Shown: piece after piece, positions 6,224-58,686 of the stretch
Position numbering within the stretch: position 1 is the first letter of the stretch
How the letters are laid out: every line of letters begins with the position of its first letter
Assembly: GCA_012295275.1 (NCBI GenBank)
Contig: CM022678.1
Location: forward strand, 16,368,001 to 16,432,000
Reading direction: 5' to 3'
DNA: 64,000 bases
From: Chrysomallon squamiferum
Taxonomy: Eukaryota > Animalia > Mollusca
Made by a program: the position numbers and the translations under genes
Notes under the pieces: generated by a model
Told to the model about the DNA's origin: nothing
The model's input: the letters and a program-made list of their open reading frames with translations, nothing else
Databases searched by the model: none

Positions 6224-6281
<58 letters not shown>

Positions 6282-7663: not shown

Positions 7664-7705
<42 letters not shown>

Positions 7706-16313: not shown

Positions 16314-16352
<39 letters not shown>

Positions 16353-16576
16353 CAACATCGTTATTGTTATTATTATTATTATTACTATTATTATTTTATC
16401 ATTATTATTATTGATTATTATTATTATTATTAATATTATGATTATCAAGATCATTGTGACTGTTATTATTATTATTATTTTATCATCATTATTATTGATT
16501 ATTATCATTATTTTAAGTATAACAGCATCATTGTTATTAATACTGCTATTATTCTTATTATTATTATTACTGCTGC

Positions 16577-16616
<40 letters not shown>

Positions 16617-16704
16617 GATTATTATCATTATTTTTATTATAATAGCATAATTGTTATTAATACTGCTATTATTCTTATTATTAATATTACTGCTGCTATT
16701 ATTA

Positions 16705-16735
<31 letters not shown>

Positions 16736-18583: not shown

Positions 18584-18694
18584 ATGACGATTTAAGTCAA
18601 ACAACAGTGTCATTGCTTCTGTTGTGCATTTATCAATTTGGTGCTGGATTATGTTAACTTTCAAAGCATAACAAACACAACTCTGGTTACAAAC

Positions 18695-21457: not shown

Positions 21458-22157
21458 CAGTATTCCCTCGCTATTCGCGGGGGTTACGTTCTTTACCCCC
21501 CCGCAAATAGCGAAAAACCGCGAATATTGGATGCAGTTTTAAAACGTCTATTATGAGATTATATATGGTACTAAATGCTTCCCAAACACTTTCTAAAGAC
21601 ACTCTTACTCATTAATACAGTAATAATGTAGTAATATTGCATGCAGTTACGTATTTCACTAATGTAGTAATGATAATGTAAACACATTTTAATTTTGTAC
21701 TGAAACAATATTTTAATCAGAAAGAAACGTAAGTGCAGGAGGACAGTAACACCGCATAGCATAGTTACCCATACTGTATTACTGTACCGTAAAGTAATTT
21801 TCTATGCGTAGAACATATGTATTAGAATTGACAGAAAGTGGAACAAATTTAAAGGCAAACAGACAGATAAATACAGTACGCACAGTTCAGGTAATAATAA
21901 TACAATTCAGTAATAATATGCAGTCAGCCAATAGCAGCCCAGCCATTGTTCGATGAAGACGTCAATCGATAAAAACTGCTCGAGAGAGTAAATACAGACA
22001 TACCCTCGAAAAGTCTCTATGACCTACAAAAACCCGGTTTTTCCGAGCATTTGTTTTTATGGCGTTATGACGCTAGCCTGGTATCCCAGCATTCGATGCG
22101 ATAGGGTTAAGAGCCTAACCAGCGAATAGGGAACCGCGAACAGGTGAGGGTATACTG
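21458..22157. mobile_element. Tigger/pogo-like MITE with TA target-site duplication
   Basis: TA|CAGTATTCCCTCGCTATTCGCGG ... CCGCGAACAGGTGAGGGTATACTG|TA; the empty site with a single TA is seen in paralogous copies at 43220 and 60068. Confidence 0.9.
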
Positions 22158-22191
22158 TACATGTCTTTTCATTTTATTTCTTTTGTTGTCC

Positions 22192-22634: not shown

Positions 22635-23064
22635 TTAAATGTTGTTGCTGTCATTCATATTTCTTTCTTCTAATAACTTAATTTTCATTATACTTCAGGA
22701 TCTGTATTAGATATTATTTGTTTCTGCATTCATATATAAAGATCTAAGCGTAGAGACGTAATAATAAAAATGATCTGATCTGTGGAAACCTTTGCCTAAA
22801 ATTTTAACCGTAAAGATATTGCATCTTGCTGCTGTGTTTGCGACTAACACGTAAAAAACATCTGACCTTTGTCATTTACATATCCGGGTTCAGACTTCCG
22901 ACTGCCAGCCAAACACCGAATATTCACTCAACAATCGGCCGGTTCCGCAATGTAATTATTTAGAGTTATCTTACCATTCGGCGAATCATCCTCACTTCCG
23001 ATGACTCGATTCAATAATTCATTGCACTAAATAAATTATTCATATAAAAAGACTGCATTCAAAA

Positions 23065-23574
23065 ATGTAAAGGACAACATGAAGGTAAGTTCTGCTTGAA
23101 TACATGTAAAGTGAAGATACTTGAAACTAGGCGAAGTCTACATTACAAGCTCGGGCGGGCAGAACTAAATCGTAAAATTATTCTTTATGGTTATTAAGTA
23201 ATTTTTATCAAACCAGAAAGCATAAAATTAAAATTCTTTTATTTTTCTAGTATTAGTGTTAAATATAGAAAAGTAATTCTTATCTTCTTCGTTGGTTCTC
23301 AAACAATTTGTTTTATAATAGTTTTTCCTTTTTCATTTCTTACATCCTTGTTTTTAAAAAATATAACTGTCACTATTTCAGAGAGCACAACTTAGCATAA
23401 ACAATAAATATAATGAAACACTCATTATACTTCTAATAACAAACCAACTTAGATCAATAAACATTAGTGAAAACTCGTCAGCGTGACATTTAACAGAAAC
23501 AGACAATTTATAACCCGGCACTGTCATAAGGAAAAGTTTAGTTATTAAGTATAAACAATAAACAGAAACAAAAA

Positions 23575-23609
<35 letters not shown>

Positions 23610-26037
23610 TTTAATTTCCGATGACCCGCCCTATTCTGCTACAGGACCTCGAGCACTCGAGCATGAATATCCAAGTAGGTTTTAAAATAATTTCGAACTG
23701 GAGAACTATTCATTTTTTTTTATATACCTCCTGCAAGAAGAGAATAAATCTGAAGACGCTTGAAACTTGGCGAAGTCGCCATTAATAAAACGTTTATTAA
23801 AAGCTCGGGCAGGCAGAACTAAATCGTGAAATTATTGTTATTTGTTTTAACCTTTTATCGAACCAGAAAGCACATAATCAAACTTCGTTTATTTTTCTAG
23901 TATTTAGTGTCAAATAAAGAAAATTCACTTTTATCTTTTTGTTTTTTTCTCGAACATTCATTTTCTTTTCTTTTTTTCTTAACTTTCTTACTTCCCTGTT
24001 TTTATAGAAATTTATCTGCTATGAAATTAGTTGTTTTCATTTATTTTATCTACGTTCGTCTTCATGATTTCGTAATTTACATATTTTGTCATTGATACCT
24101 CTATCGACAAAAGAATTTGTAAACACAATGTAGTGAATATCTTTAGCTTCAGATGTAATTGTTTAAACACAAAATTAATAATAATAATAATAATAATACA
24201 TTTTTAGTTACTTCAGACTTGCGACCATCCAGTCCTCGTGTTCCAGTAGACAACACATCAGATAAACCAAACCCACCCCGACCAGAAGACCCGTGTTTTG
24301 TTTCACCAGGTATCAAAGTTTTATGCTTCTGTGAGTTGACACGGACTATTTTATTTCTTCATGGGCAAATGCAATTTTCTGTGGAGCAAAGACATCGTAC
24401 TAATTATAAAAATAATTTAAATTATTGTTGTTGTTGTTCTTTCTTGTTGCTGTTTCTCCTTTGGGTTTTTACAGGTTTTTTGTTTTGATGTTTTTTGTTG
24501 GGTTTTTTGTTGTTGGTTTTTTTTTTGGTTGTTTTTTGTATTATTTTGTAAATGAATTCATTGTACTTCATCAACTTACTCTTCTTTTCTGTTCATTTTT
24601 GAAATTAGTTCTTTTCATCTACTTCCGTCTTCATTATTTCGTAATTTACGCTTTTTGACATTGTTATATCTATCGACAAAACAATTTTTAAACTAAACGT
24701 AGCGAATGCCTTTAGATTAAAATATATTCCTTTGTCTTGTGTGAAAAGCATATTTATTACAATTGTGATAGAATTTTTTTTAGTATAAGCAATAAACATA
24801 ATGAAACATTCATTACACGTTAAAGAACAAACAAACTTAGCTAAATACACACTTGTGTAACTTGTCAATGTGATAATTAACAGAACGATACAGTTTATAA
24901 TCTGGTAATATCACAAGAGAAAATTTTGTATGTTAAGTATAAACAAAAATATAAATAAACACAAAATTAATAATAATAATAGCACATGTTTAATTTCAGA
25001 TATTGAATGCAAAATGGCAGATGAAGAAGGTAAGTATGAATCTATCATAGGTAGGTTTTAAAGTAATTTCGATCTGGATAAATATTCATTTCTCATCTAC
25101 GTAACAAACGTAAACTGAAGACACTTGAAACTTGGTGAAGTCGCTATTAATAAAACCTCTATTAAATGCTCGGGCAGGCAGAACTAAATCGTGAAATTCT
25201 AGGTTATGGTTTTAAGTAATTTTTTATCGAACCAGAAAGCACATAATCAAAATTCATTTATTTTTCTAGTTTTAGTGTCAAATAAAGAAAATTCACTTTT
25301 ATCTTTTTGTTTTTTTCTCGAACATTCTTTATCTTTCCATTTTCTTTCGTAAATTTATTACTTCCCTGTTTTTACAAAAATGTATCTGATATGAAATTAG
25401 TTGTTTTCCTTGATTTTATCTACGTCCGTCTTCATGATTTCGTAAATTACACATTTTCTCATTGGTATATCCATCGACAAAATAATTTGTAAATAAAAGT
25501 AAGTGAATTCCTTTAGCTTAAGATGTAACTGTTTAAACACAAAATTAATAATAATAATAATAATAATAATAATGATACATTTTTAGTTACTTCAGACTTG
25601 CGACCATCCAGTCCTCTTGTTGCAGTAGAGAACACATCAAATAAACGAAACCCACCCCGACCAGAAGACCTGCGTGTTGTTTCACCAGGTATCTAAGTTT
25701 TATTGCTTCTGTGAGTTGACACAGACTATTTTATTTCTTCATAGGCATATTAGCGTAAATGCAATTTTCTGTGCAGCAAAGGCATTGTACTAATTATATA
25801 AATAAGTATGTCATATAAACTAGTTTTATTTCCAGTTCATCAGCTTTCTTTTCTTTTCGATTCATTTTCAATTTACTTTTCACTTATTTTATCTACTTCC
25901 GAAATTTTGTAATTTACTCTTTTTGATATTTTTCTATCTACCGTAAAGTGATTTATAAACTAAACTTCGTGAATGCCTTTAGATTAAAATATATTCGTTT
26001 ATCCTCTGTGAAAAGCATAATTATTACAATTGTAATA

Positions 26038-26068
<31 letters not shown>

Positions 26069-27101
26069 CCATTATGAAGTTCTCATTACACTTTAAAAAA
26101 GAAACCAGCTTAGTTAATTAAATATTAGTTAATATTTGTCAACTTGATAATTAATATACAATTTATAATCCGGTACTCTCATAGAAAAGGTTTAGTTTAT
26201 TAAGTATAAACAATAAAGATGAATAAGTATTACTTAGAACCTGTCATCTTACAGTTAACAGAAACAGACGTTTCATAAGGAAAAATGTAGTTATAAAAAG
26301 ACACATTAATAAACATAAAATTAAGAATAATAATTACAATAAATACTACAGGACCAGTTTCCAGACGATCAGGCAAGCATAAACGTAAACGTAGGTTTTG
26401 AAATAATTTTGATCTGGAGAAATATTTACTGTTTATGTACATCCTGCAGGAAGAGAGGTAGTCTGAAGAGATTTGAAACTCGGCGAAGTCGCCATTAATA
26501 AAACTTTTACTAAAAGCCCGGGCAGGCAGAACTAAATCGTGAAATTATTGCTTTTGGTTTTAAGTAATTTTTATCCACCAAAAAGCACATAAATAAAAAT
26601 TCATTTATTTTTCTACTATTAGTTTCAAATAAAGAAAATTCATTTTTATCTTTTTGTTTTTTTCTCGAACGTTCTCTTTTTTTTCCTTTTTTCTTAACTG
26701 GTTTACTTTCTTGCTTTTATATGAAATTGGTTGTTTTCATGAATTTTATCTACTTCGGTCTTCATGATTTCGTAATTTACACATTTTATCATTGATACAT
26801 GTATCGACAAAAGAGTTTGAAAACGTCCTAAATTTTTTACGTCCTTGTATTTTTAAAAAAGCTGTCTCCTATGAAAAATGTAACTGTCACTATTTCAGAG
26901 AGCAAAAGTTAGCATAAACCATAAATATAATGAAAGATTCTTTACACTTTCATTCAATAAAAAACCAACTTAGATAAATAAACATTAGTCAAAACTCGTC
27001 AACGTGACATTTAACAGAAACAGACAATTTATAACCCGGTACTGTCATAAGGAAAAATATTGTGATATTAAGTATAAACAATAAACACAAATAAACACAA
27101 A

Positions 27102-27134
<33 letters not shown>

Positions 27135-30100
27135 CGTTTAATTTCAGGTGACCCGCCTTATTCTGCTACAGGACCAGTTTCCCGACGATCACGCAAGCCC
27201 AAACGTAAAGGTAGGTTTTAAAATAATTTTCATCTGGAGAAATATCAAATTTTTTTTATATACGTCCTGCCGGAAGAGAGGTAGTCTGAAGATACTTGAA
27301 ACTCGGCGAAGTCGCCATTAATAAAACATTTATTAAAAGCTCGGGCAGGTAGAACTAAATCGTGAAATTATAGTTTATGGTTTTAAGTAATTTTTATCTA
27401 ACCAGAAAGCACATAAATTAAAATTCATATATTTTTCTAGTATTTAGTGTCAAATAAGAAAAATTCATTAGTACTAGGCATCGTACTAATTATACAAATA
27501 AATATGTTATTTAAATTAGTTTTATTTCCAGTTCATCAGTTTTCTTTTCTTTTCGATTCATTTTTGATTTAGTTTTCATTTATTTCATCTATTTCTGTCT
27601 TCATTATTTTGTAATCTACGCTTTTTGATATTGTTATATCTATCGTAAAATGATTTTTAAACTAAACATAGTGAATGCCTTTAGATTAAAATATATTCGT
27701 TTATCCTGCGTGAAAAGCATAGTTATTATAATTGTAATAAGTTTGTATAAACAATAAACATAACGAAGTACTCATTACACTTTAAACAAGAAACCAGCTT
27801 AGTAAATTAATTATTAGTTAAAATCCGTCAACGTGATAATTAATAAACAATTTATAATCCGGTAGCTTAGTAAATTAATTATTAGTTAAAATCCGTCAAC
27901 GTGATAATTAATATACAATTTATAATCCGGTACTGTCATAGAAAATATTTAGTTTATTAAGTATAAAAACAAACATGATTAAATATTGCTTAGAGCCTGT
28001 CATCTTACAGTTAACAGAAACAGACAATGCCTAAAGAAATTTTTTATTAAAAGCTTGGGCAGGCAGAACTATATCGTGAAATTATTGTTTTTGGTTTTAA
28101 GTAATTTTTATCCAACCAGAAAGCCCGTAATCAAAATGCATTTATTTTTCTAGTATTTTGTGTCCAAAAAGAGAAGAAAATTCACTTTTATCTTCTCGTT
28201 TAGTTACGAACGTTATTTTCCCCTTAATATTTGACCTCCTTGTTTTTATAAAAAGGTATGTGCTATCAGAGTTTTGTGCTCCTGTGTTTTGACGCAGCCT
28301 ATCGTATTTCTTCATGGGCCAGATTAGCGCAAATGCAATTTTCTGTGGAGCAAAGGCATCGTATTAATTACAAAAATAATTTAAAGTATTATTACTATTA
28401 TTATTATTGTTATTGTTGTTGTTGTTGTTGTTGTTGTTTTTCCTTTGATTTTTTGGTTTTTTATTTATTTATTTTTTTTATTTTTTTTTTTGGTTATTTT
28501 TTGTATGTTTTTGCAAATGAATTTATTGTAGTTCATGAACTTACTCTTCTTTTCAGTTCATTTTTGAAATTAGTTGTTTTCATTTACTTCCGTCTTCATT
28601 ATTTCGTAATTTAAACTTTTTGATATTGTTTTATCTATGGACAAAATAATGTTTAAACTAAACGTAGTGATTGCCTTTACATTAAAATGTATTCCTTTAT
28701 CCTGTGTGAAAAGCATAGTTATTACAATTGTGATACAAAATTTAGTATAAGCAATAAACATAATGAAACACTCATTACAAGTTAAAGAACAAACCAACTT
28801 AGATAAATAAACATTTGTGAAAACTTGTCAGTGTGATAATTAAGAGAACGATACAGTTTATAATCTGGTAATATTACAAGAAACTTTGTTGTCTATTAAG
28901 TCTAAACAAAAATATAAATAAACACAAAATTAACAATAATAATACCACATGTCTAATTTCAGATATTGAATGGAAAATTGCCGATGAACAAAGTAAGTAT
29001 CAATCTGTAATAGGTAGGTTTAAAGTAATTTCGATCTGGATAAATATTCATTTTTATCTACGTAAGATATGTAAACTGAAGACACTTGAAACTTGGTGAA
29101 GTCGCTATTAATAAAACTTTATTAAATGCCCTGGCAGGCAGAACTAAATCGTGAAATTATTGTTTTTGATTTTAAGTAATTTTTATCCAACCAGAAAGCA
29201 CATAATCAAAATGCATTTATTTTTCTAGTATTTAGTGTCAAATAAGGAAAATTCACTTTTATTTTCTTGTTTATTTCGGGAACGTTATTTTTTCCCCTTA
29301 ATATTTTACCTCCTTGTTTTTATAAAAGGTATGTGCTATCAGAGTTTTATGCTTCTGTGAGCTGACACAGACTATTGTATTTCTTCATGGGCCAGATTAG
29401 CGCAAATACAATTTTCTGTGTAGCAAAGGCATCGTACTAATTACATAAATAAATACGTCATTTGAATTAGTTTTATTTCCAGTTCATCAGCTTTCTTTTC
29501 TTCTCGATTCATTCTTAATTTAGTTGTTTTCAGTGATTTTATCTACTTCGGTCTTCATCATTTTGTAGTTTCGCTTTTTGATATTATTATATCTATCGTA
29601 AAATGATGTTTAAACCAAACGTAGTGAATGCCTTTACATTAATATATATTCGTTTATCCTGCATTAAAAGCATAGTTATTACAATTGTAATAAGTTTGCA
29701 TAAACAATAAACATAATGAAGTACTCATATTACTTTAAACAAGAAACCAGCTTAGTTAATTAAATATTAGTTAAAATCCGTCAACGTGAAAATTCGGTAC
29801 AGTCATAGAAAAAAATTAGTTTATTAAGTATAAACAATAAACATGAATAAATATTACTTAGAACCTGTCATCTTGACAGTTAACAGAAGCAGACAATACC
29901 TAAGAAAAATGTTGTATTATGTATTATTATGTATAAAAAGACACATTAATAAACATAAAATTAAGAATAATAATTATAATAAATTCTGCAGGATCAGTTT
30001 CCCGACGATCAGGCAAGTATAAACGTAAACGTAGGTTTTGAAATAATTTTGATCTGGAGAAATATTCACTGTTTATCTAAGTCCTGCAGGAAGAGAGGTA

Positions 30101-30394
30101 GTCTGAAGAGATTTGAAACTCGGCGAAGTCGCCATTAATAACTTTTATTAAAATCTCGGGCAGGCAGAACTATATCGTGAAATTATTGTTTTTGGTTTTA
30201 AGTAATTTTTATCGAACCAGAAAGCACATAATCAAAATCCATTTATTTTTCTAGTATTTAGTGTCAAAAAAAAAAGAGAATAAAGTTCACTTTTATCTTC
30301 TTAATTTCGACATGGATATATCTACTGACAAAATAATTTGTAAACAAAACGTAGTGAATGCCTTTAGCTTAGGATGTAATCATTTAAACACAAA

Positions 30395-30428
<34 letters not shown>

Positions 30429-30597
30429 TAACAATAATAATACATTTTTAGTTGGGTCGGGTTTGCGACCATTCAGACCTCCTGCGGTTCCAGTAGTGAG
30501 CACATCAGATAACCCGAACCCACCCCGACCAGAAGACCCGGAGATTCCAGACCCGGAATATAAACTTGACAGTCTTCAGGATATAAACAACTTGTAG
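23065..30597 (+). CDS. Putative micro-exon gene A (Pro-rich and basic modules); first exon frameshifted, in-frame ATG at 25014
   Basis: Candidate exons 23065-23084, 23645-23674, 24208-24309, 25000-25029(or 25050), 25587-25688, 26352-26390, 27148-27210, 28963-28992(or 29013), 29992-30030, 30452-30597 (TAG). All internal exons are AG/GT-bounded, phase 1-1, multiples of 3 and stop-free. Confidence 0.6.
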
Positions 30598-30982: not shown

Positions 30983-32572
30983 GACCGTCTTGTTTCAGTC
31001 TGTATTTATCTGTGTCGTCTGATATAGAAAATAAATCATATTTGATTACCGCCGTTTTACCATCAGAGTCCTCAACATTTATCTCAATTTCAAATGGTCT
31101 CTCACGAGTCAGCAGGTGTATGTACTTGTTTCCTGGAATGGGAAAAACAGAACACAAATCAAATTGACTCAAATCAGCAGAATAAAATATAGGAAATAGC
31201 CAACCCACTAACACAGATTATTAGATTATAATGATTAAGACGATGATGATGATTATGATGACGATGGTGATGAGATAAGGAAAGAAGCACATGATTTAAA
31301 GGCAAATTCTCTTTATTGATGAGTGTATTGGCCCATCAGCTCAGATAATGACTGAAGTAACCCGCTTACTTCACTTTATGGGCTACTCCTTCCTACTTGC
31401 AGCAACATAACTTTACAGCTACCATGAGCACTGATTGGAACGAGAAGCAGCTCAGTGGGTCAGAAAAACGAGCTTGATCACATCCAGTGATTCTGAAAGG
31501 GTGTGGTTAGACATGGTTAGGTGTGCCCCACGAAATTCTAGGGTCAGAAAAACGAGATTGATCAGACAATACAGTGATTCTGAAAGGGTGTGGTTAGACA
31601 TGGTTAGGTGTGCCCCACGAAATTCTAGGGTCAGAAAAACGAGATTGATCAGACAATACAGTGATTCTGAAAGGGTGTGGTTAGACATGGTTAGGTGTGC
31701 CCCACGAAATTCTAGGGTCAGAAAAACAAGATTGATAAGACAATACAGTGATTCTGAAAGGGTGTGGTTAGACAAGGTTAGGTGTGCCCCACGAAATTCT
31801 AGGGTCAGAAAAACGAGATTGATCAGTCAATACAGTGATTCTGAAAGGGTGTGGTTAGACATGGTTAGGTGTGCCCCACGAAATTCTAGGTTCAGAAAAA
31901 CGAGATTGATCAGACAATACAGTGATTCTGAAAGGGTGTGGTTAGTCATGGTTAGGTGTGCCCCACGAAATTCTAGGGTCAGAAAAACGAGATTGATCAG
32001 ACAATACAGTGATTCTGAAAGGGTGTGGTTAGACATGGTTAGGTGTGCCCCACGAAATCCTAGGGTCAGAAAAACGAGATTGATCAGACAATACAGTGAT
32101 TCTGAAAGGGTGTGGTTAGACATGGTTAGGTGTGCCCCACGAAATTCTAGGTTCACAAAAACGAGATTGATCAGACAATACAGTGATTCTGAAAGGGTGT
32201 GGTTAGACATGGTTAGGTGTGCCCCACGAAATTCTAGGGTCAGAAAAACGAGATTGATAAGAGAATCCAACGCTCCAAAAACAACCCGTAAACTGCATTC
32301 CCGTTCCATGATAATAACAGTAATAAAATAATCATAACGATAATGATATTGATAATGATAAAGATATCGATAACGATAATGATTAAGATATCGATAATGA
32401 TAATGATAATGATACTTATAATGATATTAGTAATGATAATTCACAGGCAGAAAAGTGTATGCACAAATTCATATTAATTAATTGTACTTACTACCTCACC
32501 TAACCAAAATTCATTTGTCAGATTTCCAAAACCATTTTCATACTCTGACCAAGTTCTATCAAAATCTTCAAA
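30983..32572 (-). pseudogene. Fibrinogen-related domain (FReD) gene fragment, two exons
   Basis: About 32572-32500 DFDRTWSEYENGFGNLTNEFWLG|GTGAGG; 31132-about 30983 CCAG|GNKYIHLLTRERPFEIEINVEDSDGKTAVIKYDLFSISDDTDKYRL. No flanking exons recognised. Confidence 0.8.
31458..32262. repeat. 87-bp tandem repeat, about 9.2 near-identical copies
   Basis: Unit GGTCAGAAAAACGAGATTGATCAGACAATACAGTGATTCTGAAAGGGTGTGGTTAGACATGGTTAGGTGTGCCCCACGAAATTCTAG; lies in the FReD intron. Confidence 0.95.
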
Positions 32573-33049: not shown

Positions 33050-36000
33050 CGTCAGTATGGTCTGAAAGTAGGTACCTATAGTAGGTATAGTTTTGTTTTT
33101 AATTATTAATTTAATTGGCCATTCCAATTGATCCGTCAATCAGCCGATCCATCCATAGATCCATCAGCTGTTCAACCAATCAATCTGTAAGTCAGTAGAT
33201 TCATACAATTGCTGTTTGTTTTTGTGTCATAAAAAAAAAGGAAAAAAAAAGAGTCTAAAGTTTGTGTTTTGTGTTCAGAATGTGTGTTGTTACTGCAGCG
33301 AGGACTAACTCTGTGTCTTTCGTGTTTGGTGCCAAGATGTGTTGGAGCGTGAACTCGATTTTTAGCTCCTCCAGTGTATTGCGTAGTGCTTGTCTTTCCT
33401 TGGCGAAATTTTGACAGTGAAACAAGAAGTGTTTCATGGTTTTGGAGAGTCCACAGCTGCAGTTGGGTGATGTAGTGTTGTGATATTTGTATCGGATTGC
33501 ATTTAAGTTGGTCGAGTAACCAATTCTGGCTTTGGTGAGTTTGTTGTTGTGCAGTTTGTTGGCGAGTGTGATTTTGGGTGTTTTGGTGAGTGGTTTGATG
33601 TTCAAGTGCCATTTGTTTTTGGTGTTGTTCCATTCGTTTTGCCATTGTTTGTCGTAATGTTTGGCTGCGATGGAGACAATTTCGTTTACTCCGTAGTGTA
33701 TGTCTGTGCAGATGCCTTCCTCTTCAATGCTGAGTGACTCTTTGGCGTAATGGTCGGCAAGTTCGTTGCCGATGATGCCGACGTGTGCTCGGAGCCACTC
33801 GATTATTAATTGTTTCTTGTTGTGTTGTATGTCCTCGTGTAGTTGTTGTATTCTGCTGAGTAGGGCTGGTCTGCTGGAATGTCCAGATTGTATTGCGATG
33901 ACGGAACTTAGACTGTCCGAGAATATGACTTTGTGTTTGTTGTTGTTGTTTTTCACCCACAGCATGGCTCTGATGATGGCGACCAATTCGGCCGTGTATA
34001 CCGAAAGGTGATTTCTGATACGGCTGAATTGTATGCATGTGGGTTTGCTTGTGTGATCTTCGGCTATGAAGGCGAATCCTACTCTCCCGTTGTCTGGGTT
34101 TTTGGATCCGCCGGTGTAGATGTGCGTGTGTTGCTTGTAATGGTCGTTTGCTGCTGCTAGAAATATGGCTTTTTTGAAGGTTGTATTTCAGTCGCTGCAG
34201 CTTTCTTCTGTATTTTAGTGGTTGGATGCTGTATTCTGACAGGAGGTTGTTGGATGGTGTGTTTGGCAGGTGGCTGATCACTCTGAGGGCGCTGGATGTA
34301 ATTACGTCTAGTTTTTTTAAAGACTGTTCGGGAGCATTCGAGTAAGCCGTGGCTCCGTAGTCGAGACTAGAGAGAATACGCGCTTTGTGTATCAAAATTA
34401 GCGTTGACTCGTTTGCTCCCCAACTGGTTCCAGAACTTAGCTTTAGAAGATTGAGTGTTTTTTGCAGGATGTAATTATGTTGTGTATATGGCATAGGTAG
34501 TTGAGTTGAATGTTTTGGATTGTGTTATGATGTTGTTGTCGATGTTTAGTGTGATTTTGTTGTTGTCTGTTGTTTTTTTTGTTGAAAAGGAGGCATGTCG
34601 TTTTCGAAAGAGAAATCTTTATGCCCCATTTCAATGCCCAGTCGTTTATGTTAAGTCTTTTTGTATTTCTTTCTGTATTGCTGCGGTCCATCTGCCTGCA
34701 CACCAAAAGGCGCAGTCGCCAGCAAAGAGTGCTGTGTTTATTGGTTCGGTTGGTGGATTTTAGGCGTTGTCTTGTTTGTCGAGTGCTGTGACGATGTCGT
34801 TGATGTAGATGTTGAAGAGTGTTGGCGAGATCACGGATCTTTGTGGGATTGCGTTTTCGATTGTCGTTTTCTCTGAGGTGTGACCGTTTACTTTGATTGC
34901 TGTGGTTCTGTTGTTAATGAAGTCTTTGATGAAGTTGAACATGTTGCTTTTGATGTTGTTGTTGATTAATTTGGCGAGCAGTCCTTCCTTCCAAACCATG
35001 TCGAATGCTTTTTCAATGTCTAGGAATACTGCGATGGCTTTTTCTGATCTCCTAAAAGACTGGTTGACTGATGTTTGCAGACAGGTGATCTGGTCGTTTG
35101 TGCTTGTTTCTTCCTGAAGTCGTGTTGGTGAGTGATGTGCAGTAGGTGTCGATGTCGTTGAGGTTTTGTGTGGTGATATTTCTGCATGCTTTGAAAAAGC
35201 CTTCCCAGTCCGCTTTGTTGAAGTTCCATTTGGGTGTGAAAATGGACCTACCGAGAAGGTGTTCTTGCTGTTGTAGTTGTTGAGTATTGGGTGGTGGTCG
35301 CTGTTTAGTTCATTGAGCACTTGTCATTCGGAGAGCGCTGCGATGTCCTTACTTGTGAATGTCAGGTCAATGGCGGATTGGCCACCATTGATGTCGCTAG
35401 TGTATGTGAATGTTCCGTCGTTCAGACTGACCAGCTGGTTTTGCTCTAGGACAATTTCGAGGACGATTCCAGTGCTGTTGTCTATCGAGCCACCCCATAA
35501 GGTGTTGTGACAGTTGAAATCGCCCATTATAATGAGCTTGTTGTTTGTTGTTATCATTTTGTTTAAGTCGTGGGTTTGGATGGTGTGCAGTGCGGGAGTG
35601 GGTGGGCTGTATATGTTAATTATGTCGATGTTTTGATTGTTGTGTATTCTGATGCTTAATATTTCTATGTTGGCGTGAACTTTGGCTTGGTTCAGCTTGG
35701 TGAGTGGAATGTCTTGTTTGACGAGTGTCATGATGCCTCCCCGGGTGCTGTTGAATCTGTTAAAGGTTACTATGATACCCGGGGACCTGAAATGTTTTTG
35801 TTGTTTTGTTGTTTTGTTGTTTTTGTTGTAATGTCCTAGCCATGTTTCTTGTATGCATATTACGCCTGGTGTGTTTCTAGTGGAGGCCAGGAAGTGTGTG
35901 AGTTTGTCTCCGTGGCCTGCTGAGTGGAGGCGTTTAGCGTTCCACTGAAGAGTGGAGAGGTCTGTGTTATTAGTGTGCTTGTTGTGAAGAGTGGAGAGGC

Positions 36001-36940: not shown

Positions 36941-36944
36941 TTGT

Positions 36945-38516: not shown

Positions 38517-41063
38517 CCAGATAACGAACCACGACCACCACGAGCGCCGCCGCCGCCGCCAGATAACGAACCACCATCACTACGACTGCCGCCACCGCCA
38601 GATAACGAACCACCACCACCACCACGACCACCGCCGCCAGATAACGAACAACCACCACTACGACTGCCGCCGCCGCCAAATAACGAACAACCACCACCAC
38701 GACCACCACCGCCAGATAACGAACCACCACCACCACGACCGCCGCCGCCGCCAGATAACGTACCACAACCACCACGACCGCCGCCGCCGCCAAATAACGA
38801 ACCACCACCACCACGACCGCCGCCGCCGCCAGATTACGTACCACCACCACCACGACCGCCGCCGCCGCCAGATAACGAACCACCACCACTCCGATCGCCG
38901 CCGCCGCCAGATAACGAACTACCACCACTACGACTGCCGCCGCCGCCAAATAACGAACAACCACCACCACGACCACCACCGCCAGATAACGAACCACCAC
39001 CACCACGACCGCCGCCGCCGCCAGATAACGAACCACCACCACCACCGCCAGATAACGAACAAGCACCACCACGACCGCCGCCGCCGCCAGATAACGTACC
39101 ACAACCACCACGACCGCCGCCGCCGCCAGATAACGAACCACCACCACTACGACTGCCGCCGCCGCCAAATAACGAACCACCACCACTCCGACCGCCGCCG
39201 CCGCCAGATAACGAACCACCACCACTACGACTGCCGCCGCCGCCAAATAACGAACCACCACCACCACGACCACCGCCGCCAGATAACGAACAACCACCAC
39301 CACCGCCAGATAACGAACAACCACCACCACGAGCGCCGCCGCCAAATAACGAACCACCACCACCACGACCACCGCCGCCAGATAACGAACCACCACCACC
39401 ACGACCGCTGCAGCCGCCAGATAACGAACCACCACCACCAAGAGCGCCGCCTCCGCCGCCAGATTACGTACCACCATCACCACGAGCGCCGCCGCCGCCG
39501 CCAGATAACGAACCACCATCACCACGAGCGCCGCCGCCGCCGCCAGATAACGAACCACCACCAAGACGACTGCCGCCGCCGCCAGATAACGAACCACCAC
39601 CACCACGAGCGCCGCCGCCGCCGCCAGATAACGAACCACCACCACCACCGCCAGATAACGAACAACCACCACCACGACCGCCGCCGCCGCCAGATAACGT
39701 ACCACCACCACCACGACCGCCGCCGCCGCCAGATAACGAACCACCACCACCACCGCCAGATAACGAACAACCACCACCACGACCGCCGCCGCCGCCAGAT
39801 AACGTACCACAACCACCACGACCGCCGCCAGATAACGAACCACGATCAAGACGACTGCCGCCGCCGCTAGATAACGAACCACCACCACCACCTCCAGATA
39901 ACGAACAACCATCACCACCACGACCGCCGCCGCCGCCAGATAACGAACCACCACCACTACGACCGCCGCCGCCGCCAGATAACGAACCACCACCACTCCG
40001 ACCGCCGCCGCCGCCAGATAACGAACCACCACCACTACGACTGCCGCCGCCGCCAAATAACGAACCACCACCACCACGACCACCGCCGCCAGATAACGAA
40101 CAACCACCACCACGACCACCGCCGCCAGATAACGAACCACCACCAACACGACCGCCGCCGCCGCCAGATAACGAACCACCACCACCAAGAGCGCCGCCGC
40201 CGCCGCCAGATTACGTACCACCACCACCACGACCGCCGCCGCCGCCAGATAACGAACCACCACCACTCCGACCGCCGCCGCCGCCAGATAACGAACCACC
40301 ACCACTACGACTGCCGCCGACGCCAAATAACGAACCACCACCACTCCGACCGCCGCCGCCGCCAGATAACGAACCACCACCACTACGACCGCCGCCGCCG
40401 CCGCCAGATAACGAACCACCACCACTCCGACCGCCGCCGCCGCCAGATAACGAACCACCACCACTACGACCGCCGCCGCCGCCAGATAACGAACCACCAC
40501 CACTACGACTGCCGCCGCCGCCAAATAATGAACCACCACCACCACGACCACCGCCGCCAGATAACGAACCACCACCACCACGACCGCCGCGAGATAACGA
40601 AGCACCACCACGACCGCCTCCGCCGCCACATAACGTACCACCACCGCCGCCAGATAATGTACCACCACAACAACCACCACCACAACCGCCTCCGCCGCCA
40701 GATAACGTACCACAACAACCACGAGCACCACCGCCGCCAGATAACGAACCACCACCACCACGACCGCCGCGAGATAACGAAGCACCACCACGACCGCCTC
40801 CGCCGCCACATAACGTACCACCACCGCCGCCAGATAATGTACCACCACAACAACCACCACCACAACCGCCTCCGCCGCCAGATAACGTACCACAACAACC
40901 ACGAGCACCACCGCCGCCAGATAACGTACCACCACCACCGCCGCCAGATAACGTACCACCACAACAACCACAACCACCACCACCGTCGTCGCCAGATAAC
41001 GTACCACAACAACCACGACCGCCTCCGCCGCCAGATAACGTACCACCACAACAACCACATCTT
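38517..41063 (+). repeat. GC-rich tandem array CCAGATAACGAA(CCA)nCGA(CCG)n encoding poly-(PDNEPPPPRPPP); expanded terminal exon of the Pro-rich family (copy F)
   Basis: Open about 850 codons; ends in PHL like genes B and C and is followed by family 3' UTR sequence; exact 180-bp duplication 40561-40740/40741-40920. Confidence 0.75.
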
Positions 41064-41120
41064 AGAAAAGCAACCTCGGTCATAATAATTATATATCTTA
41101 ATATTAATTTATTAATTACT

Positions 41121-41227
<107 letters not shown>

Positions 41228-41517
41228 CTCATTATTATTCATAGTTACTCATTTAGCTTTCGGTGATTAATTTCTTAAAATAATGTGATTAAGGAAAATT
41301 AAGATTTATTATAAATTTTGATATTTATGTTTTACGTTATGCTTTTAGATATTTGATCATATTTATCTTCCAGACACCAAAAGCCAACTAATGATTCGAC
41401 AAAATAAACAACTTGGAGACAAAAATTTGTTGGTGTGATGCATCTTATAAAAGCAGCTTGAGTCATAATAATTATATATACAAACTTTGCTTGATTATTT
41501 AACTTTGTTGTCAAACG

Positions 41518-45110: not shown

Positions 45111-45510
45111 AAAACATGGACGTTAATTAATAAATAAATCAAGTTAGTTGTATAGTTTTAAAGAATTAAGAGTTTATTAATAAAAATAAAAAAATAAAAC
45201 ATTAACTTTTTAAAGTTTATTCAATAATTAATAAAACAGTATTGAGAAGTTTAATTATTAGTATTATTATTAATGTTACTTTCAGTATTAATATTAAAAT
45301 TTAATAATTGAAGCAGTCAAATATTATCATTTAAAAGTTAGTTCATTAAATTATCAGTGACAACATTACCACGTCATTCACTTTACTGTTCAACAACATT
45401 TTAATAACCAAGCGAAGTCTTTATGTATAATTATTACTGCAGAACCTGCTTTTATAAGATATATGACGTCATAAAAACAAGTTGTTTATATCCTGAAGAC
45501 ATTCAAGTTT

Positions 45511-45622
45511 TCATTCCGGGTCTGGAATAACCGGGTCTGCTGAACGAGGTAGGGCGGATTTGTTTGGTCTGATCAGTTCAGAAACTGCAGGATAGTGATA
45601 AGAATAAAACAAACCAAAAAAT

Positions 45623-45666
<44 letters not shown>

Positions 45667-48216
45667 TTTGTGTTTAAACGATTACATTTTAAACTAAAGG
45701 ATTCATTCCGTTTCGTTTAAAATTCATTTCATAGATAGATATATTAATGTCAAAAAGCGTAAATTACGAAATCATGACGACGGAATTAGAAAAAAACAAA
45801 TGAGAACAACTAATTTAAAAATAAACAGAAAAGAAAAACAAAACAAATAAATAAATAAATAAATAAATAATAAAATAAAATAAAATAATAATAATAATTT
45901 AAATGACATATTTATTTATATAATTAGTACGATGCCTTAGCTCAGCAGAAAACGCTAGTCTGGCCCATCAAAAAATACAATAGCCTGTATCACAGAAATA
46001 TAAAACTTTGAAAGCACATACCTTTTTATAAAAACAAGGAAGTAAAAAATTAAGGGAAATAATAACATTCGAGAACTAAACAAGAAGATAAAAGTTAATT
46101 TTCTTTATTTCACACTAGAAAAATAATGAATTTTAAATATGTGATTTCTGCTTCGACAATATTTACTAAAAACCGTAAACTATAATTTCACCCGAGCTTT
46201 TAATGGCGACTTCGCCGAGTTTCAAGTATCTTCAGACTATGTCTGTTCTTGCAGGACGTATACAAAAAGTGAATATTTCTCCAGTTCGAGATTATAAACT
46301 GTCTGTTTCTGTTAAATACTACATTGACGAGTTTTGATTAATGTTTATTAATCTAAGTTGGTTTGTTATTTAAAGTGTAAAGTTTTTCAGTATTGTCTAT
46401 ACTAAATTTTGCTCTATCATAACAGCTCTATTTTTCATAGCAGATATCTTTTTATAAGAAAAGGAAATAAAAATGTAAGGAAAAACAACAAAACATTCGA
46501 GAACTAAACAGGAAGTAAAAGTGAATTTTCTTTATTTGACACTAATACTAGAAAAATAAATGAATGCTTCGATAAAAATTACTTAAAACCATAAACTACA
46601 ATTTCACGATTTAGTTCTGCCCGCCAAGTTTCAAGTATTAAGTCTCTTCCTGCAGGACGTATATAAAAAGTAAATATTTCTCCAGATTTTAAAACCTACC
46701 TCTAAATGCAGGCTTGCATAGTCGTGTGACAAAATAGGGTGGATCGACTGAAAGTAAACTTTTATTTATGTTCATTTATGTTTATTGTTTATACTTAAAT
46801 TTTCCTTATGACAGTACTGGATTATAAACTGTTTCTGTTAAATAACACGCTGACAGGTTTTTAACTAATGTTTATTTATCTAAGTTTTTAGCTAATTATG
46901 GGGAATGTAGCTAGGGAGCAAGAAAATAACAACGTCAGGCTGGAATTATTTTATCATCAATGTACATCAATAATATTAATCTATTATAAACCGGTTAATG
47001 ACCTATGTGGATATATATTTGATATTTTTAACTGCTCTTATTTTTTATTTTATTACTTCTTTTTTTTCTCTTTTTTTTTTGTGCCATAATAATTTATGAA
47101 GCTTTTGCATATTAACTTGCTAATTGTGTTGGTAGATCGGATTATAAAGTTTCTGTTTCCGTTAACTGTCAAGTTGGCAAGTTCTAACCAATGTTTATTT
47201 ATGTATGTTGTTTATACTAAATTTTTCTACTTTCATTTCAGTTTTTATAAACTTGTTCAACTCTTCTTCTGTGTCTTCCTAAAGATTAAATTGTCACACA
47301 TGAAGTGAGTTTGTAGGTCATTGTGTTTTTCTCTTAAGTTTCCAAACTTTTAATTCTCATATTTGTTGTTTATTATTATCTCTAGAACTGTTCATATGTG
47401 ACACAACAGTTTCAAAATTCCGAGAAGTTTTTTATTCATTTCAAAATGTTCGTTAATGTAAATTCATACCCGTTTCCAATTTTTACTTTTTTTTTTATAT
47501 CAATCATTTTACCACTAATGTCTTGTACAGCTACATCCATACTGTTCAGTCGTTTCTCAATCATGTCCAGTTTTTCCAATTTATCGCACATCATATCTAA
47601 CTTTCTAGTCAAAGTATCTGATTTTATACTGACATCTTGACTGTGCACAACTGGTGAAATTAAACCAGAATACTCACCGTGGAATCATTAGGTTTGTCCA
47701 TATTGTCCATACTGTGACTGCTGAGACTGTTGGTTGGCTGTTTACTGTTGAATTGGTTTTGACTGATAAAATGGTGCAGATGAACAACTCTTTATTCTGT
47801 GTATTTGACGTCCTTATAATAGCGAGTTCTTGACCAGCTTGGCTACTGCTTACCCTTACTTTCTGTTCACTTTCTCCACATATATTTTTTTCTCTATTTA
47901 CCTGTTTTATTTTCATGTTGCGTACTCATGTATCCTGAGCAACAATATTGACTGATAAAGCAGATACAGCAACTTTTAAAACCAATAAACATTATATATT
48001 TCATTTTAGAAACGAGAAACACGACTTTCATTTCCACGAATAGTTTTCAGATAATTTAGTTCTGCTCGCCCTAGCTTTTTTAATGTAGACTTTGCCCAGC
48101 TTCAACTGTCTTCAGATTAAAGCAGGATGAAGATAAAAAATAATTAATATTTCTCTAGATCGAAATTGCTTTAAAACCTGCCTTTAGGTCGTCCTTTTCT
48201 GTGTATCTTCTGTCAT
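45511..48216 (-). pseudogene. Pro-rich family copy D (probably broken)
   Basis: Exon 1 48216-48182 (35 nt, in-frame TAA, donor GCAGGT); micro-exon 46747-46700 (48 nt, DPPYFVTRLCKPAFR); last exon 45584-45511 (SELIRPNKSALPRSADPVIPDPE-TGA). Confidence 0.6.
47270..47950 (-). mobile_element. Possible decayed LINE ORF1-type coiled-coil fragment inserted in the copy D intron
   Basis: Heptad-like LTRKLDMMCDKLEKLDMIEKRLNSMDVAVQDISGKMIDIKKKV; broken frames; absent from paralogous introns. Confidence 0.4.
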
Positions 48217-50019
48217 TTTTTTACATCAGTAACTTGTTTAGTCCAGCGAATTATTGAGTGAATATTCGGTGTTTGTTTGGCTTGGAATCGAAAGTCTGTA
48301 CATAATATATAAATATATTTTAAATTTATTGTAATTTCTTTTCATATTGTCAATATATAAAACATGTAATTAGTTCATGAAGGTTTTCTTTTAAAGTACA
48401 TAGAGAAAACTCATAAAAAGATTCTAACAACCTTAAACGTTTTATTTTCATCTTTGTATGCATAAATTCTACATACGAAACAAATAGGAAAGGAAATGTT
48501 TTACTTACTATTCACATCTGAATGTGCGTGTGTGGGTGTGTGTGTGTGTGTGTGTGTCCGGAAGAAGTTGTTTTCAACTGGGAAACAATTGCTATTCTCA
48601 AAAGATAGTATTAAACCTTCAAACTTTGAAAACTGTGAAAAATGAGACGTAATAAAAAGTAAATAAGCAGGAATACAAACTGATACCCAGTACAAACCAG
48701 GGTACATCTAATCTTTAAATTATCGATCTATTTATGGAATCCATGATCTCCTTTCAAACCTGAAACCAATAAAATATAATAAAATAAAATAATATTTAAT
48801 GTTTTTGTGTTGTTGGTAAGGATTTATTTTTAATAAACGAAAAGGCTCAAGTTAGGCTTGGGTGTCCTCTACGGTCATCTAGGTCAACCTTTTTTATTTT
48901 GTTATTCAGAAAAATAGCAGTGTTGTTGGGTTCAAATTTTAGGTCAAAGTTATCACAGGTGAGATAATTTTTATAAGGTCATAGAGCCCTGAACTAAAAA
49001 GAGTTTGACAGCTAATGGATAAGACGCTTGGTTATTCATACATGATAACAGAAACAAATAATTTTAAATATGTATACAAACACAGATCAGGAAGTATAAT
49101 GAAAATTAACAGTATTAGAAAAAAAAAAGAAAAAAACAACAGTTGTTTAATTGCTATTATTTCTTTGTGCCGTAATAATTTATTTGCATATTAAATTGCT
49201 TATCGTTTTAGTAGATCGGATTATAAATTGTCTCTTTCTGTTAACTGTCTGTTTACAGGTCTAACCAATGTTTATTTATGTTTATTGTTTATACTTATTG
49301 TAAAAGTACCGTATAGTAGTTGTAGTAGCAGTAGTAGTAGTAATAGTATAAGTAGTAGTATAACAAGTACATCATAAAACAATTGTAGCAGCAGAGGTAA
49401 TAGAAACAATAAAAGCATGACGTAGTTGTTATGATAATGGCACAAGTTGTACAATAGTAATAGTAATGATACGAGCAGTTTAAAATATTTTTAATTACTT
49501 GAAAAAAAAGTATGAATTAATTTATATAATTATATAATGAATACAAGTTATTTAAAACCATCAGCAAAGGAAAGAATGTTAGTAAACTGGTATGCATATA
49601 AGGAATTAAAGTAAAATAAAAACAAATGAAACAAACTCATTTATTTATATACATTTATATAATGAAAACTGAAAACTCTCGTCAGTCGCTTTGATTTGCG
49701 TTAATCTCGCCGTGACGTAATAACCTGCGTGACTTTGTAAGATCTCCCACCCAGGTAATAATTAGAAAGAATTTAAAAGTAATCATAAGAGATAAATCAG
49801 TAAGCAAGCAGTACTAATAATAGTAAAGGTACTTTAAGTGTTTAAAAACGAAATGTGAAACATATATAGATAGTCATTTAAAATTATCATTTAAAAGTTA
49901 ATAAATCATTCAATATTACCATATTAAAATTAATAATTCACGACATTGTTAATGAAACATTCAAAGCGTATCATTTAAAAGTTAATTCATTAATAAAAGT
50001 TAATTTATTAAAGATACTT

Positions 50020-50147
50020 TTAAGCTTGTAAATAGCATATTTCATTTTTAATATTAAAACTGATTAACATCACTGACACGTCATTCACTGGAACTGAAGG
50101 TGGATTGGACGGTCGTTGGCCTACTTTGTCTACAAAATCAGAACTAA

Positions 50148-50202
<55 letters not shown>

Positions 50203-50584
50203 GGTCAATAGATAGGTCAATGTCAAAAATCGTAAATTAAGAAACGAGGAAGACGGAAGTAGATTAATAAAAAAAAATGAAAACAACTGATTTAAAAATG
50301 AACTGAAAAGAAAAGAAAGCTGATGACCTGGTACAATGAATTCATTTAAAATAAAACTATTCTAAATGACGTATTTATTTATATAATTAGTACGATGCCT
50401 TTGCTCCACAGAAAACTGTATTTGCGCTAATCTGGCCCATGAAGAAATAAAATAGTCTGTGTCAACTCACAGAAACATAAAACTTTGATACCTGGTGAAA
50501 CAACACGCGGGTCTTCTGGTCGGGGTGGGTTTGGTTTATCTGATGTGTTGTCTACTGGAACTGGAGGACTGGATGGTCGCAAGT
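50020..50584 (-). pseudogene. Pro-rich family copy E (5'-truncated)
   Basis: Exon 50584-50492 (93 nt, LRPSSPPVPVDNTSDKPNPPRPEDPRVVSP); last exon from 50129 (KVGQRPSNPPSVPV) fused by deletion to 3' UTR sequence; no exon 1. Confidence 0.6.
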
Positions 50585-51809
50585 CTGAAATATCCAAAAA
50601 TGTATTATTATTATTATCTTTTATTGTTACTAATTTTAGAATGATTATATAACAATATTCTTCTTTTTTCTAATGTTAAATAAAGGAAAAATGTGTGTTT
50701 CCCTTTATTATTATTGTTATAGATTTGAATATATCAGTTTTTCTTGTCATTATTATGTATGATATTTTTTTATTTTTAACAAATTTGTATAGATATACCA
50801 AAATGCTGTTGTAGAATTATAGAAGAAAACATAATTATAATTTTTGATATTTAACATTTATTTTCAGCTTACAGTTATCACTTTTTTATTTATTTATTTA
50901 TTTTAAATTTTACTGACGTTGCTCTTGTTCATATTTGCTTTCTCTAAATTTCTGTATTAGATATATTTTTTTTTTAGTTATTTGTTTCTGTTATCATATA
51001 TAAAGAGCAAAGCGCAGAGATGTAATAATTAAAATTTGCTTCATCCAGCAGCTGTCAAACTCTTTCATTTCAGGACTCTGAAAAAAACGTTTACCTGAAA
51101 TGTTTACCAAACAAACTTTATGCTGCTGTGTTTGTGAGTAACAGGTAAAAATAATATTAATAAAAATAAATAAAACAAACATATTTGACCTAGATGATTG
51201 TAGAGGATAGCTAATCGTAACTTGAGTCTTTAGAAATGTATTTTCCTTTGTTAAATATAAACCCATATCAATATGCCACCCACTCACCCACCCCTGCACT
51301 TTGCCCATGGAGATCGACGGACTATTTACACTGACACTCAATAAACTAAATATAACTTGTCCTATTTTTTTTCTTTCTGTTTTCTTGTTGTTGAAAATTG
51401 TTGAACTTTGTCAACATTATTTATTCTGAGCATGCATGAACATGCACACACGCTCACACGCACACTCAAGCTCACGCACACATATATAATAATAATAATT
51501 ATATAACTTTTTTCCTTCTTTTTTGTTTATTTACTTTTTTGATAAAGACATGTCTGTATGTAATTGTCATCAGCTATGTGTGTGAAAAATATTTCCTAGG
51601 TAAGGAGAGGTTGGCAAATGATGGGACTATCCACGTGGTGAGTAACTAACTGTATAGAGGTCAAAAGGGGTCAATAAACACCAGTGTGATTTATGGTAGT
51701 TTTTGTACTGAGTATAAGAAATTTGTGATTAAGATACACTCATAGCAGGGGCGATTTATTGGGCAGGTTCTCATTGTACGTAACTCCTCCCGGCACTGCA
51801 CAGACACAG

Positions 51810-52448: not shown

Positions 52449-53086
52449 ATGTTTTCAGGAAAACTGCCTACAGGTAGGTTTTAAAGTAAATTCGATCTGG
52501 AGACACATTCATTTTTTATCTACATCCTGCTTGAATAGGCGTAGTCTGAAGATACTTGAAACTTGGCGAAGTCACCATTAAAAGCTCGGGCGGGCAAAAC
52601 TTAGTTATGAAATTATAGTATACGGTTTTTAGAAATTTTTATCGAACCAGAAAGCACCTATATTATCTTCAAGAAATTATTACTGATACTAAAATTAGTT
52701 TTAAGGCACTCTCTTTGTTACTACAACTATATAACTTTTTTCTGTATTGATTCCTTAATTTTTCTAATTATTACAAGAACATTGATGGTTCCGCGATTTG
52801 ACTCAGTGCGAAATTAACGCAAATGCAATTTTCTGTGGAGCAAAGTCATCGTACTAATTACATAAATAAATACGTCGTTTAAATTATTTGTATTTTAAAT
52901 GAATTCATTGTATTAGTTCATCAGCACAAAGTTAATAATAATAATAATACATTTTTGGTTTTAGTTAGTCTACCCATCGTCGGGACACGACCGTCCAAAC
53001 CTCCTTCAGTTCCAATCCGGAACGTACCGATAGACAGACCACCATCACCACATCTTCCAGGTGCAACCGACTCTAAAAAGTCCTAA
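52449..53086 (+). CDS. Putative two-exon Pro-rich micropeptide gene B, 48 aa
   Basis: 52449-52473 (CAAAATG...ACA G|GTAGGT) plus 52965-53086 (TTTTAG|TT...TAA): MFSGKLPTVSLPIVGTRPSKPPSVPIRNVPIDRPPSPHLPGATDSKKS. Confidence 0.68.
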
Positions 53087-57217: not shown

Positions 57218-58686
57218 TTATTTAGGTTTATATTCCGCCTCTGGAAGATGCGGGGGTGCTGGTCGGGGTGGGAATGGGTTATTTGGTGTGCTTGGTACTG
57301 GAACTGAAGGAGGTTTGAACGGTCGTGTACCGACAATGGGAAGATCAACTAAAAAATAAAAATTAATTAATTAATTAATTAGGTTTTTAAAAGAATACAT
57401 TTTAAGCTAAAGGCATTCATTACGCTTCGTTTAAAAATTATTTTGTCGATAGATACATCAATGTCAAAAATCGGAAATTACGAATAAGGAAGACGGAAGT
57501 AGAAAAACGAAATTAAAAAAAATAAATTAAAAATTAATCGAAAAGAAAAGAAAGCTGATGAACTGGAAAAATGAATTCATTTAAAATAAAAATAATTTAA
57601 ATGACATATTTATTTATATAATTATTTTGCTCCATAGAAAATTGCACTTGCGTTAATCTCTCACATGAAGAAATACAACAGCCTCTGTGAAAACGCGGAA
57701 ACATCAACTTTCTTGTAATAATTAGAAAATTAAATAATAAATAAATAAAAATAATATAGTAGCAGTATAAAAAAGAGAGTGCCTTAAAACGAATTTTAAT
57801 ATCAGTAATAATTTCTTGAAGATATGACAGTGAAAATCTTTTATTCTGTTATTTGTTTTATAATTTTGCTTTTGAGCTAATTCTGGGGAATGTATCTAGG
57901 GAACAAGACTAACAACGTCAGGCTGGTATTATTTTATCATCAATTTTTTAAACTATTTTGAATCGGTTACGTAACCACTTATGTGGATATTTAATTGCTA
58001 TTATTTCATTGTGCCGTAATAATTTATGCACCTTTTGTTTATTAAATTGCTTGTTGTGTTGGTAAATCGGATTTAAAGCCTGTTTCTATTAACACTGACG
58101 TTGGTTAACCAATATTTAATGTTTATTGTTTATATTGAATATAAATTTTTCCTTATGACAGTTCCGGATAATAAATTGTCTGTTTCTATTAATTGTTACT
58201 TTAACAATTTTTAAGTAATGTTTATTTATCTTAAATTTATCTTATGTTTAATGTGTAATGAGTGTTTCATTATGTTTATTGCTTACATAAACTTTTTTTC
58301 TATCACAATAGCTTTATTTTTCATAAAAGATACTTTTGTAAAACCCAGTAACTGAGTAAGTAAAAATTCTAAAACAAAACGTTTGAGAACTAAGCAAGAA
58401 GAAAAAATGAATTTCTTTATTTGACTAAATACTAATTTGACTAATACTACAAAAATAAATGAATTTTAATATTATGTGCTTTCTTTTTCCATAAAAGTGA
58501 CGTAAAACCATATACAATAATTTCACGTTTTAGTTCTGCCCGCCCGAACTTTTTAATGGCGACTTCGCCAAGTTTCAAGTATCTTCAGACTATCCTCTAT
58601 TCAAGCAGGACGTAGATTAAAAATGAATATTTCTCCAGATCGAAATTACTTTAAAACCTACCTTTAGGTTTTCCCGTTGGTAACAT
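57218..58686 (-). CDS. Putative two-exon Pro-rich micropeptide gene C, 51 aa
   Basis: 58686-58662 (CAAAATG...AAA G|GTAGGT) plus 57348-57218 (TTTTAG|TT...TAA): MLPTGKPKVDLPIVGTRPFKPPSVPVPSTPNNPFPPRPAPPHLPEAEYKPK. Confidence 0.7.

Follow-up and report, generated by a model that had tools for sequence, protein, structure and literature searches.

The window, that is, the whole stretch of DNA analysed here, comprises 64,000 nt of AT-rich sequence from the mollusc Chrysomallon squamiferum. The upstream neighbour of the gene under study, gene A, is an extracellular sulfatase homologous to Sulf-1 (2334-18600, plus strand; Pfam Sulfatase), and the best of 31 matches to one of its exons is a Sulf-1 homologue from Gigantopelta aegis, a vent gastropod, with 82% identity, the others ranging from 60-72%. 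Pieces of the region downstream of the sulfatase recur at approximately 43.2, 60.1 and 61.7 kb; therefore, the duplicated units began near the 3' end of the sulfatase gene. Directly upstream of gene A, at 21459-22160, lies an element that is flanked by TA and ends in short inverted sequences, which we take to resemble a MITE of the Tc1/mariner type. Minisatellites with units of 26, 73 and 87 nt and 85-97% unit identity are located at 3967-4729, 17633-18268 and 31457-32266, and a fragment at 54200-54950 on the minus strand resembles the decayed C-terminus of a hAT-type transposase.

Gene A has ten exons in all, including eight successive internal exons of phase 1-1. Its features, deduced from the sequence unless other evidence is named, are the following:

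22895..23084, plus strand, homologue of exon 1, placed by alignment to the first exons of the paralogues, with an approximate 5' edge
23645..23674, plus strand, exon candidate of 30 nt, a shortened basic-type module with an internal AG as acceptor
24208..24309, plus strand, P1, a proline-rich exon of 102 nt, copied from the last exon of the family and provided with a new donor, supported in addition by an RNA junction to 25000
25000..25050, plus strand, A1, an acidic exon with donors after 25029 and 25050 and the likely start codon ATG at 25014; in RNA its first 30 nt follow directly on P1
25587..25688, plus strand, P2, a proline-rich exon of 102 nt
26352..26390, plus strand, B1, a basic exon of 39 nt
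27148..27210, plus strand, B2, a basic exon of 63 nt, with an in-frame internal acceptor at 27172 that yields 39 nt
28963..29013, plus strand, A2, an acidic exon with donors after 28992 and 29013, in which the ATG of A1 is not retained
29992..30030, plus strand, B3, a basic exon of 39 nt
30452..30597, plus strand, the last coding exon, proline-rich, 146 nt
30674, 30836 and 31030, plus strand, candidate polyadenylation hexamers

The original prediction described gene A as a chain of symmetric micro-exons of three module types, and the core of this description was borne out, since AG and GT ends, a length divisible by three and a stop-free phase-1 frame were found in all eight internal exons. 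The term micro-exon proved less apt: only three of the eight measure 30 nt and the others 39-102 nt, and 350 of the 581 exon bases reside in the two 102-nt exons and the 146-nt last exon. The exons differ clearly from the surrounding DNA, with a GC content of 47.5% versus 26.1% in the introns, where merely three of the 68 spans of 27-105 nt between a YAG and a GT are divisible by three and stop-free in phase 1. Two donors 21 nt apart, both in frame, are indeed present in the acidic exons, but the downstream one, previously regarded as the second, is the ancestral donor common to all exons outside the proline-rich class; the 30-nt donor arose later and agrees with the donor consensus at seven and six of seven positions, versus five of seven for the ancestral one. 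The 63-nt exon contains in its interior an AG in frame, homologous to the acceptor used by the 39-nt exons and by the exon at 23645, the latter being a shortened basic-type module that has lost the ancestral AG and not a type of its own. The three module types collapse into re-used halves of one ancestral intron. Furthermore, none of the 75 possible ordered junctions among the 13 exon forms creates a stop codon. This compatibility and the presence of alternative in-frame donors and acceptors speak for a reading in which gene A is a convergent generator of diversity similar to the Schistosoma micro-exon genes (MEGs), with many skip combinations, positive selection and a role in immune, symbiont or sperm-egg recognition. 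In view of the evidence presented below, we regard this reading as improbable.

Self-comparison of the window detected paralogues of gene A at 41.4-58.8 kb. The members and fragments of this local family are:

57218..58686, minus strand, paralogue D, intact, two exons, 51 amino acids including 17 prolines, pI 10.0, phase-1 intron
52449..53086, plus strand, paralogue E, intact, two exons, 48 amino acids including 11 prolines, pI 11.1, phase-1 intron of 491 nt
50000..50593, minus strand, paralogue F, a P-type exon (93 nt, counted from an AG in frame within it) and a truncated last exon
45500..48220, minus strand, paralogue C, with the ATG of exon 1 out of frame and a shortened last exon
46700-46747, minus strand, middle exon of paralogue C, 48 nt, phase 1-1
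38517..41270, plus strand, paralogue B, an open frame with a tandem array of 849 amino acids, 59% of them proline

Paralogues D and E share a layout of eight codons, a single phase-1 intron and a proline-rich exon, with in-frame stop codons upstream. In the array of paralogue B a unit of 39 nt is repeated about 68 times, and the same peptide family has thus been expanded within one exon; its 3' end matches the last exon and 3' untranslated region of the family, and on its 5' side it abuts a LINE, with no start exon evident. This LINE-type retrotransposon (33172-38516, minus strand) is broken, encodes endonuclease and RNase H domains according to Pfam and carries long tandem arrays on its 5' side, where it adjoins the proline array. 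An additional remnant of the last exon and 3' untranslated region of the family is located at 41340-41520 on the plus strand. An exon 1 homologue adjoining paralogue F was not found. Paralogues B, C and F appear damaged, which is consistent with gene A itself being a decaying pseudogene or a non-coding RNA that is transcribed and still spliced, its open exons being leftovers of a former coding stage. We consider this rather unlikely, and the arguments on both sides are given with the respective data.

To trace the origin of the exon chain, paralogue E served as ancestral model for mapping the introns of gene A. All eight introns carry matches to the single 491-nt intron of paralogue E. Six of them, following the 30-nt, basic and 51-nt acidic exons, begin at the donor of this intron (position -4 to +1; 66-77% identity), the match of the first gene A intron starting at position 54, and the introns after the proline-rich exons show their first match at about position 340. 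The ancestral acceptor region of the E intron is retained in three introns, those ahead of P1, P2 and the last exon, and the upstream stretch of these proline-type acceptors is also present ahead of the 63-nt basic exon and the acidic exons. At the exon level, pairs within gene A are 83-92% identical, and the P exons turned out to be copies of the last exon that gained a new donor. The 48-nt middle exon of paralogue C matches the start of exon 2 (shuffle p 0.0005 for D and 0.001 for E), and the 63-nt exon of gene A matches the end of exon 1 of paralogue D (p 0.003), its similarity to exon 2 being not significant (p 0.26-0.38). For the bodies of the 39-nt, 30-nt and acidic exons no convincing match was obtained, the best value among 35 uncorrected tests being p 0.04 for A2 against exon 2 of paralogue E, a similarity that A1 does not share. 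A derivation of the acidic exon from exon 1 found no support, as the similarity was not significant (p 0.5-0.9).

Intron pieces and exon homologies agree, in line with the proposal that gene A originated by duplication of exon-plus-intron modules. On sequence comparison, its exons can confidently be taken to have been made by tandem duplication across the single phase-1 intron of a two-exon family. The accompanying caveat that the shared phase is inherited was also well founded, since the introns derive from one ancestral intron: the internal exons are of phase 1-1 because they are bounded by the inherited ancestral acceptor and donor. Exon symmetry is accordingly accounted for by inheritance, which argues against a MEG-like diversity generator.

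Public sequencing data provided information on transcription and on the integrity of the assembly. The stretch is contained in nine public runs, one of which is recorded as RNA, and four runs were aligned over the region 22640-24440. Splicing of gene A was verified for one junction, that of the exon at 24208-24309 to 25000-25029, by contig 31 of the RNA run X9, which has a length of 134 nt and a depth of 5.3 and consists of P1 and, directly after it, 25000-25029, the GT..AG intron between the two being absent. The contig agrees with P1 except at one position, the donor G, and the 26 letters of its loose end correspond to 25004-25029. It is specific to P1 and A1, as P2, paralogue F and A2 differ by eight, five and several bases, respectively, and the loose end was absent among the loose ends listed for the DNA runs. 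Contig 31 extends from the acceptor AG of P1 exactly to the 30-nt donor, limits that branches of an assembly graph would produce. This is a weak hint at alternatives in splicing and, to that extent, at a MEG-like system; against the latter stands that the sole junction seen joins neighbouring exons. A skipped isoform was not seen at this one examinable junction, and RNA contigs on the exon at 23645-23674 were likewise missing, which is not evidence of skipping since a 30-nt exon is hard to align. Run X9 also yielded unspliced and intronic contigs with depths of 3-10, and the similar depth of the spliced contig resembles intronic background, as might be expected of a decaying locus. Among the aligned runs, two haplotypes that differ at about 17 sites, both in exon 1 and upstream of it, were distinguished at 22661-22966, and the runs differ at just 0-2 sites at 22943-23511.

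As predicted, the ATG at 23065 lies outside the coding frame and has a TAA directly after it, and of the four ATGs of exon 1 (22950, 23001, 23065 and 23079) none is in the phase-1 coding frame. The suspicion of an indel error at 23061-23070 was not confirmed: no indel was present in any of the four aligned runs, which excludes an assembly error as the cause of the ATG-TAA at 23065. The loss of the in-frame start in exon 1 is fixed. A high-copy repeat fragment with a depth spike of up to about 60-fold is inserted in exon 1 at around 22930-23000 and brings extra upstream ATGs into this exon. A search between 18600 and 24207 for an exon that supplies an upstream ATG and a convincing donor of phase 1 yielded one three-codon candidate only, and a scan of phase-1 donors for an upstream exon encoding a signal peptide was negative. 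The fixed loss in exon 1 and the lack of an upstream ATG exon with a convincing donor in that interval weigh in favour of decay. On the other side of the balance, the ATG at 25014 is in frame and has a strong context (CAAAATG) that is identical in paralogues D and E. In a transcript of exon 1, P1 and A1 it would be preceded by five ATGs, an arrangement unfavourable for translation.

The chain from ATG 25014 translates to the 144 amino acids that had been predicted. This putative product has a pI of 10.3 and a GRAVY of -1.3 and contains 22 prolines and 31 lysine and arginine residues, the latter balanced in part by 20 aspartate and glutamate residues. The original prediction saw NLS-like or protamine-like basic blocks here; nuclear proteins of the protamine-like or NLS-bearing kind bind DNA and are very rich in arginine and lysine, which in the putative product make up 31 of 144 residues. 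It is likely a basic, proline-rich, disordered and intracellular protein, the disorder being read from composition in conjunction with the lack of a Pfam family for the two exons scanned, the last exon and P1. No hydrophobic leader was detected in A, D or E by a hydropathy scan, the best eight-residue hydropathy within the first 25 amino acids amounting to 1.15, 1.31 and 1.65, respectively. Without a signal peptide the usual secretion route is not available, which further counts against a MEG-like function.

Homology searches with the 47-residue sequence of the last exon gave no relatives: none of 13 candidates from a word-indexed search of longer proteins was retained at E<=10, a search of proteins of near length returned no candidates, and phmmer found nothing at E<=0.001 among 1.84 billion representatives. 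Exon 2 of paralogue D had no usable match in the ESM Atlas. As the query is short and of low complexity, these negative protein searches are weak evidence of absence. One metagenome locus with 40% identity (L001), obtained from the part of the metagenomes scanned, lies within bacterial kinase DNA of high GC content and was dismissed as a chance match. A search of the openly accessible literature found nothing on such a family or on similar molluscan cases.

With respect to selection, the reading frame and the residues it encodes have to be considered separately. Where homologous splice sites leave no freedom of choice, the lengths differ by or equal multiples of three in all four cases (63/48, 63/51, 39/30 and the RNA-confirmed 102), for which the chance is 1/3 to the fourth power or 0.012, and only four of 26 indels in the flanking introns are divisible by three. 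Three further in-frame site shifts exist, the choice of which rested in part on their being in frame. In neutral simulations the frame stays open in about 2.6% of trials for the three recent exon pairs, in 0.6% for the comparison of A with D and in 0.1% for that of D with E, values whose significance is overstated since the indel rate was taken from AT-rich introns and the copies used are those that survived. The lengths divisible by three and the absence of stops are not inherited from the duplications and, as far as sequence comparison allows, we infer that they point to selection on the reading frame. That the eight internal exons and the last exon are all open in spite of such low neutral expectations, and that shifted splice sites remain in frame, speaks against a decaying pseudogene.

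The residues themselves tell a different story. The three pairs pooled yielded a pN of 0.116 and a pS of 0.067, with introns diverging by 0.07-0.15, and thus no sign of amino-acid purifying selection in the modules of gene A; pN is about equal to pS also in the older pairs among 15 paralogue comparisons. This near equality is what decay would produce. The comparison of P1 with P2, with eight non-synonymous and no synonymous changes, could be taken as support for a MEG-like diversity generator, but with a Fisher p of 0.10, and of 0.41 when pooled, the evidence for positive selection does not reach significance.

Taken together, we favour the view that gene A is probably a spliced member of a two-exon family that was lengthened by intron-spanning duplications and likely encodes a disordered, basic, proline-rich intracellular protein of 144 residues. 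Each duplication would have carried the ancestral acceptor together with the ancestral donor and would thereby have generated, as the sequence comparison indicates, a new internal exon of phase 1-1 without selection. Exons that were still divisible by three and stop-free would then have been retained by selection on the frame, and the residues appear to drift at a roughly neutral rate, as measured. After loss of the start in exon 1, translation probably begins at ATG 25014. This codon would be reached by re-initiation, by leaky scanning across the short frames ahead of it or from an internal start site that escaped observation, and the leader sequence would in this case consist of exon 1 and P1. 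Some in-frame skipping and alternative use of donors are likely by-products of this structure. As to function, we tentatively suggest that the product may act by composition and not by exact sequence, with proline tracts of the RPxxP type spaced by acidic and Lys/Arg patches serving in protein or nucleic-acid binding of low specificity. A bolder proposal, which we consider doubtful at best, is that of a hitherto undescribed gastropod family of 50-residue intracellular proline-rich peptides that diversifies in two ways, with A as a MEG-like gene of skipped cassettes derived from an ancestor with one intron and B as a proline polymer of 850 residues, the frame being kept and the residues being driven apart as in proteins of immunity, symbiosis or fertilisation.

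The favoured view of gene A makes the locus informative in several respects. Ancestor-like copies, a three-exon intermediate and a ten-exon copy reside within 40 kb and provide an unusually complete snapshot of the transition from one intron to many exons. The locus separates the free gift of duplication, that is, the phase, from what selection keeps, that is, lengths divisible by three and the absence of stops. It also advises caution, since chains of symmetric exons by themselves do not show a MEG-like system; if many isoforms were in fact to arise, gene A would represent a convergent diversity generator outside the flatworms.

Several known systems can be compared with gene A. The polymorphic mucins of Schistosoma (SmPoMucs) are secreted proteins with near-identical short repeats, the repeat region of which originated from duplicated exon-plus-intron units; the modules of gene A differ from these in being heterogeneous and lacking a leader. 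Paralogues D and E recall, by composition only, the proline-rich antimicrobial peptides of invertebrates, being about 50 residues long, cationic and 23-33% proline, but they start eight codons ahead of the intron with neither a secretory signal nor a pro-peptide and have no database match. The internal growth of genes, including the gain of introns through tandem duplication of genomic DNA, was reportedly treated by Gao and Lynch in 2009; most introns of gene A copy a pre-existing intron and are not new introns derived from an AGGT. According to a review, duplications inside a gene give rise to additional introns and exons and recruit latent splice sites (PMC3443670), and the donor of the P exons of gene A is such a new site.

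The likeness to the Schistosoma MEGs that had been suggested was not supported. MEGs comprise 10-20 exons, which range from 6-81 nt and mostly measure 15 nt (10.1101/2023.06.21.545858), and their products all possess a signal peptide, the genes appearing to be restricted to flatworms (PMC4350168). Gene A shares with them a chain of short symmetric exons divisible by three that are potentially skippable, a fast evolution of the protein and the location in a gene cluster, but it has eight internal exons of 30-102 nt, encodes a product without a signal peptide (hydropathy 1.15) and lies in a mollusc, and no sequence similarity of gene A to MEG families was found. Were skipping to prove common, gene A might nonetheless function in the manner of a MEG.

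A closer match is the class of genes described by Schad et al., in which symmetric exons and internal tandem duplication build disordered proteins, for example MAP2 from 1,1 exons (PMC3632108). Gene A resembles this class in its runs of same-phase, mutually homologous exons and its low-complexity proline-rich regions: where at least three successive exons of the same phase define the class, gene A has eight, and homology extends to exons and introns alike, as seen from the intron mosaic and the exon pairs of 83-92% identity. It differs from the class in that a one-intron copy of the ancestral type survives next door, in that the splice sites are traceable and in that the product is an orphan without an ordered domain. 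A hypervariable system is not established at this locus, and gene A is a case of a known process of gene growth that gave rise to an orphan product.
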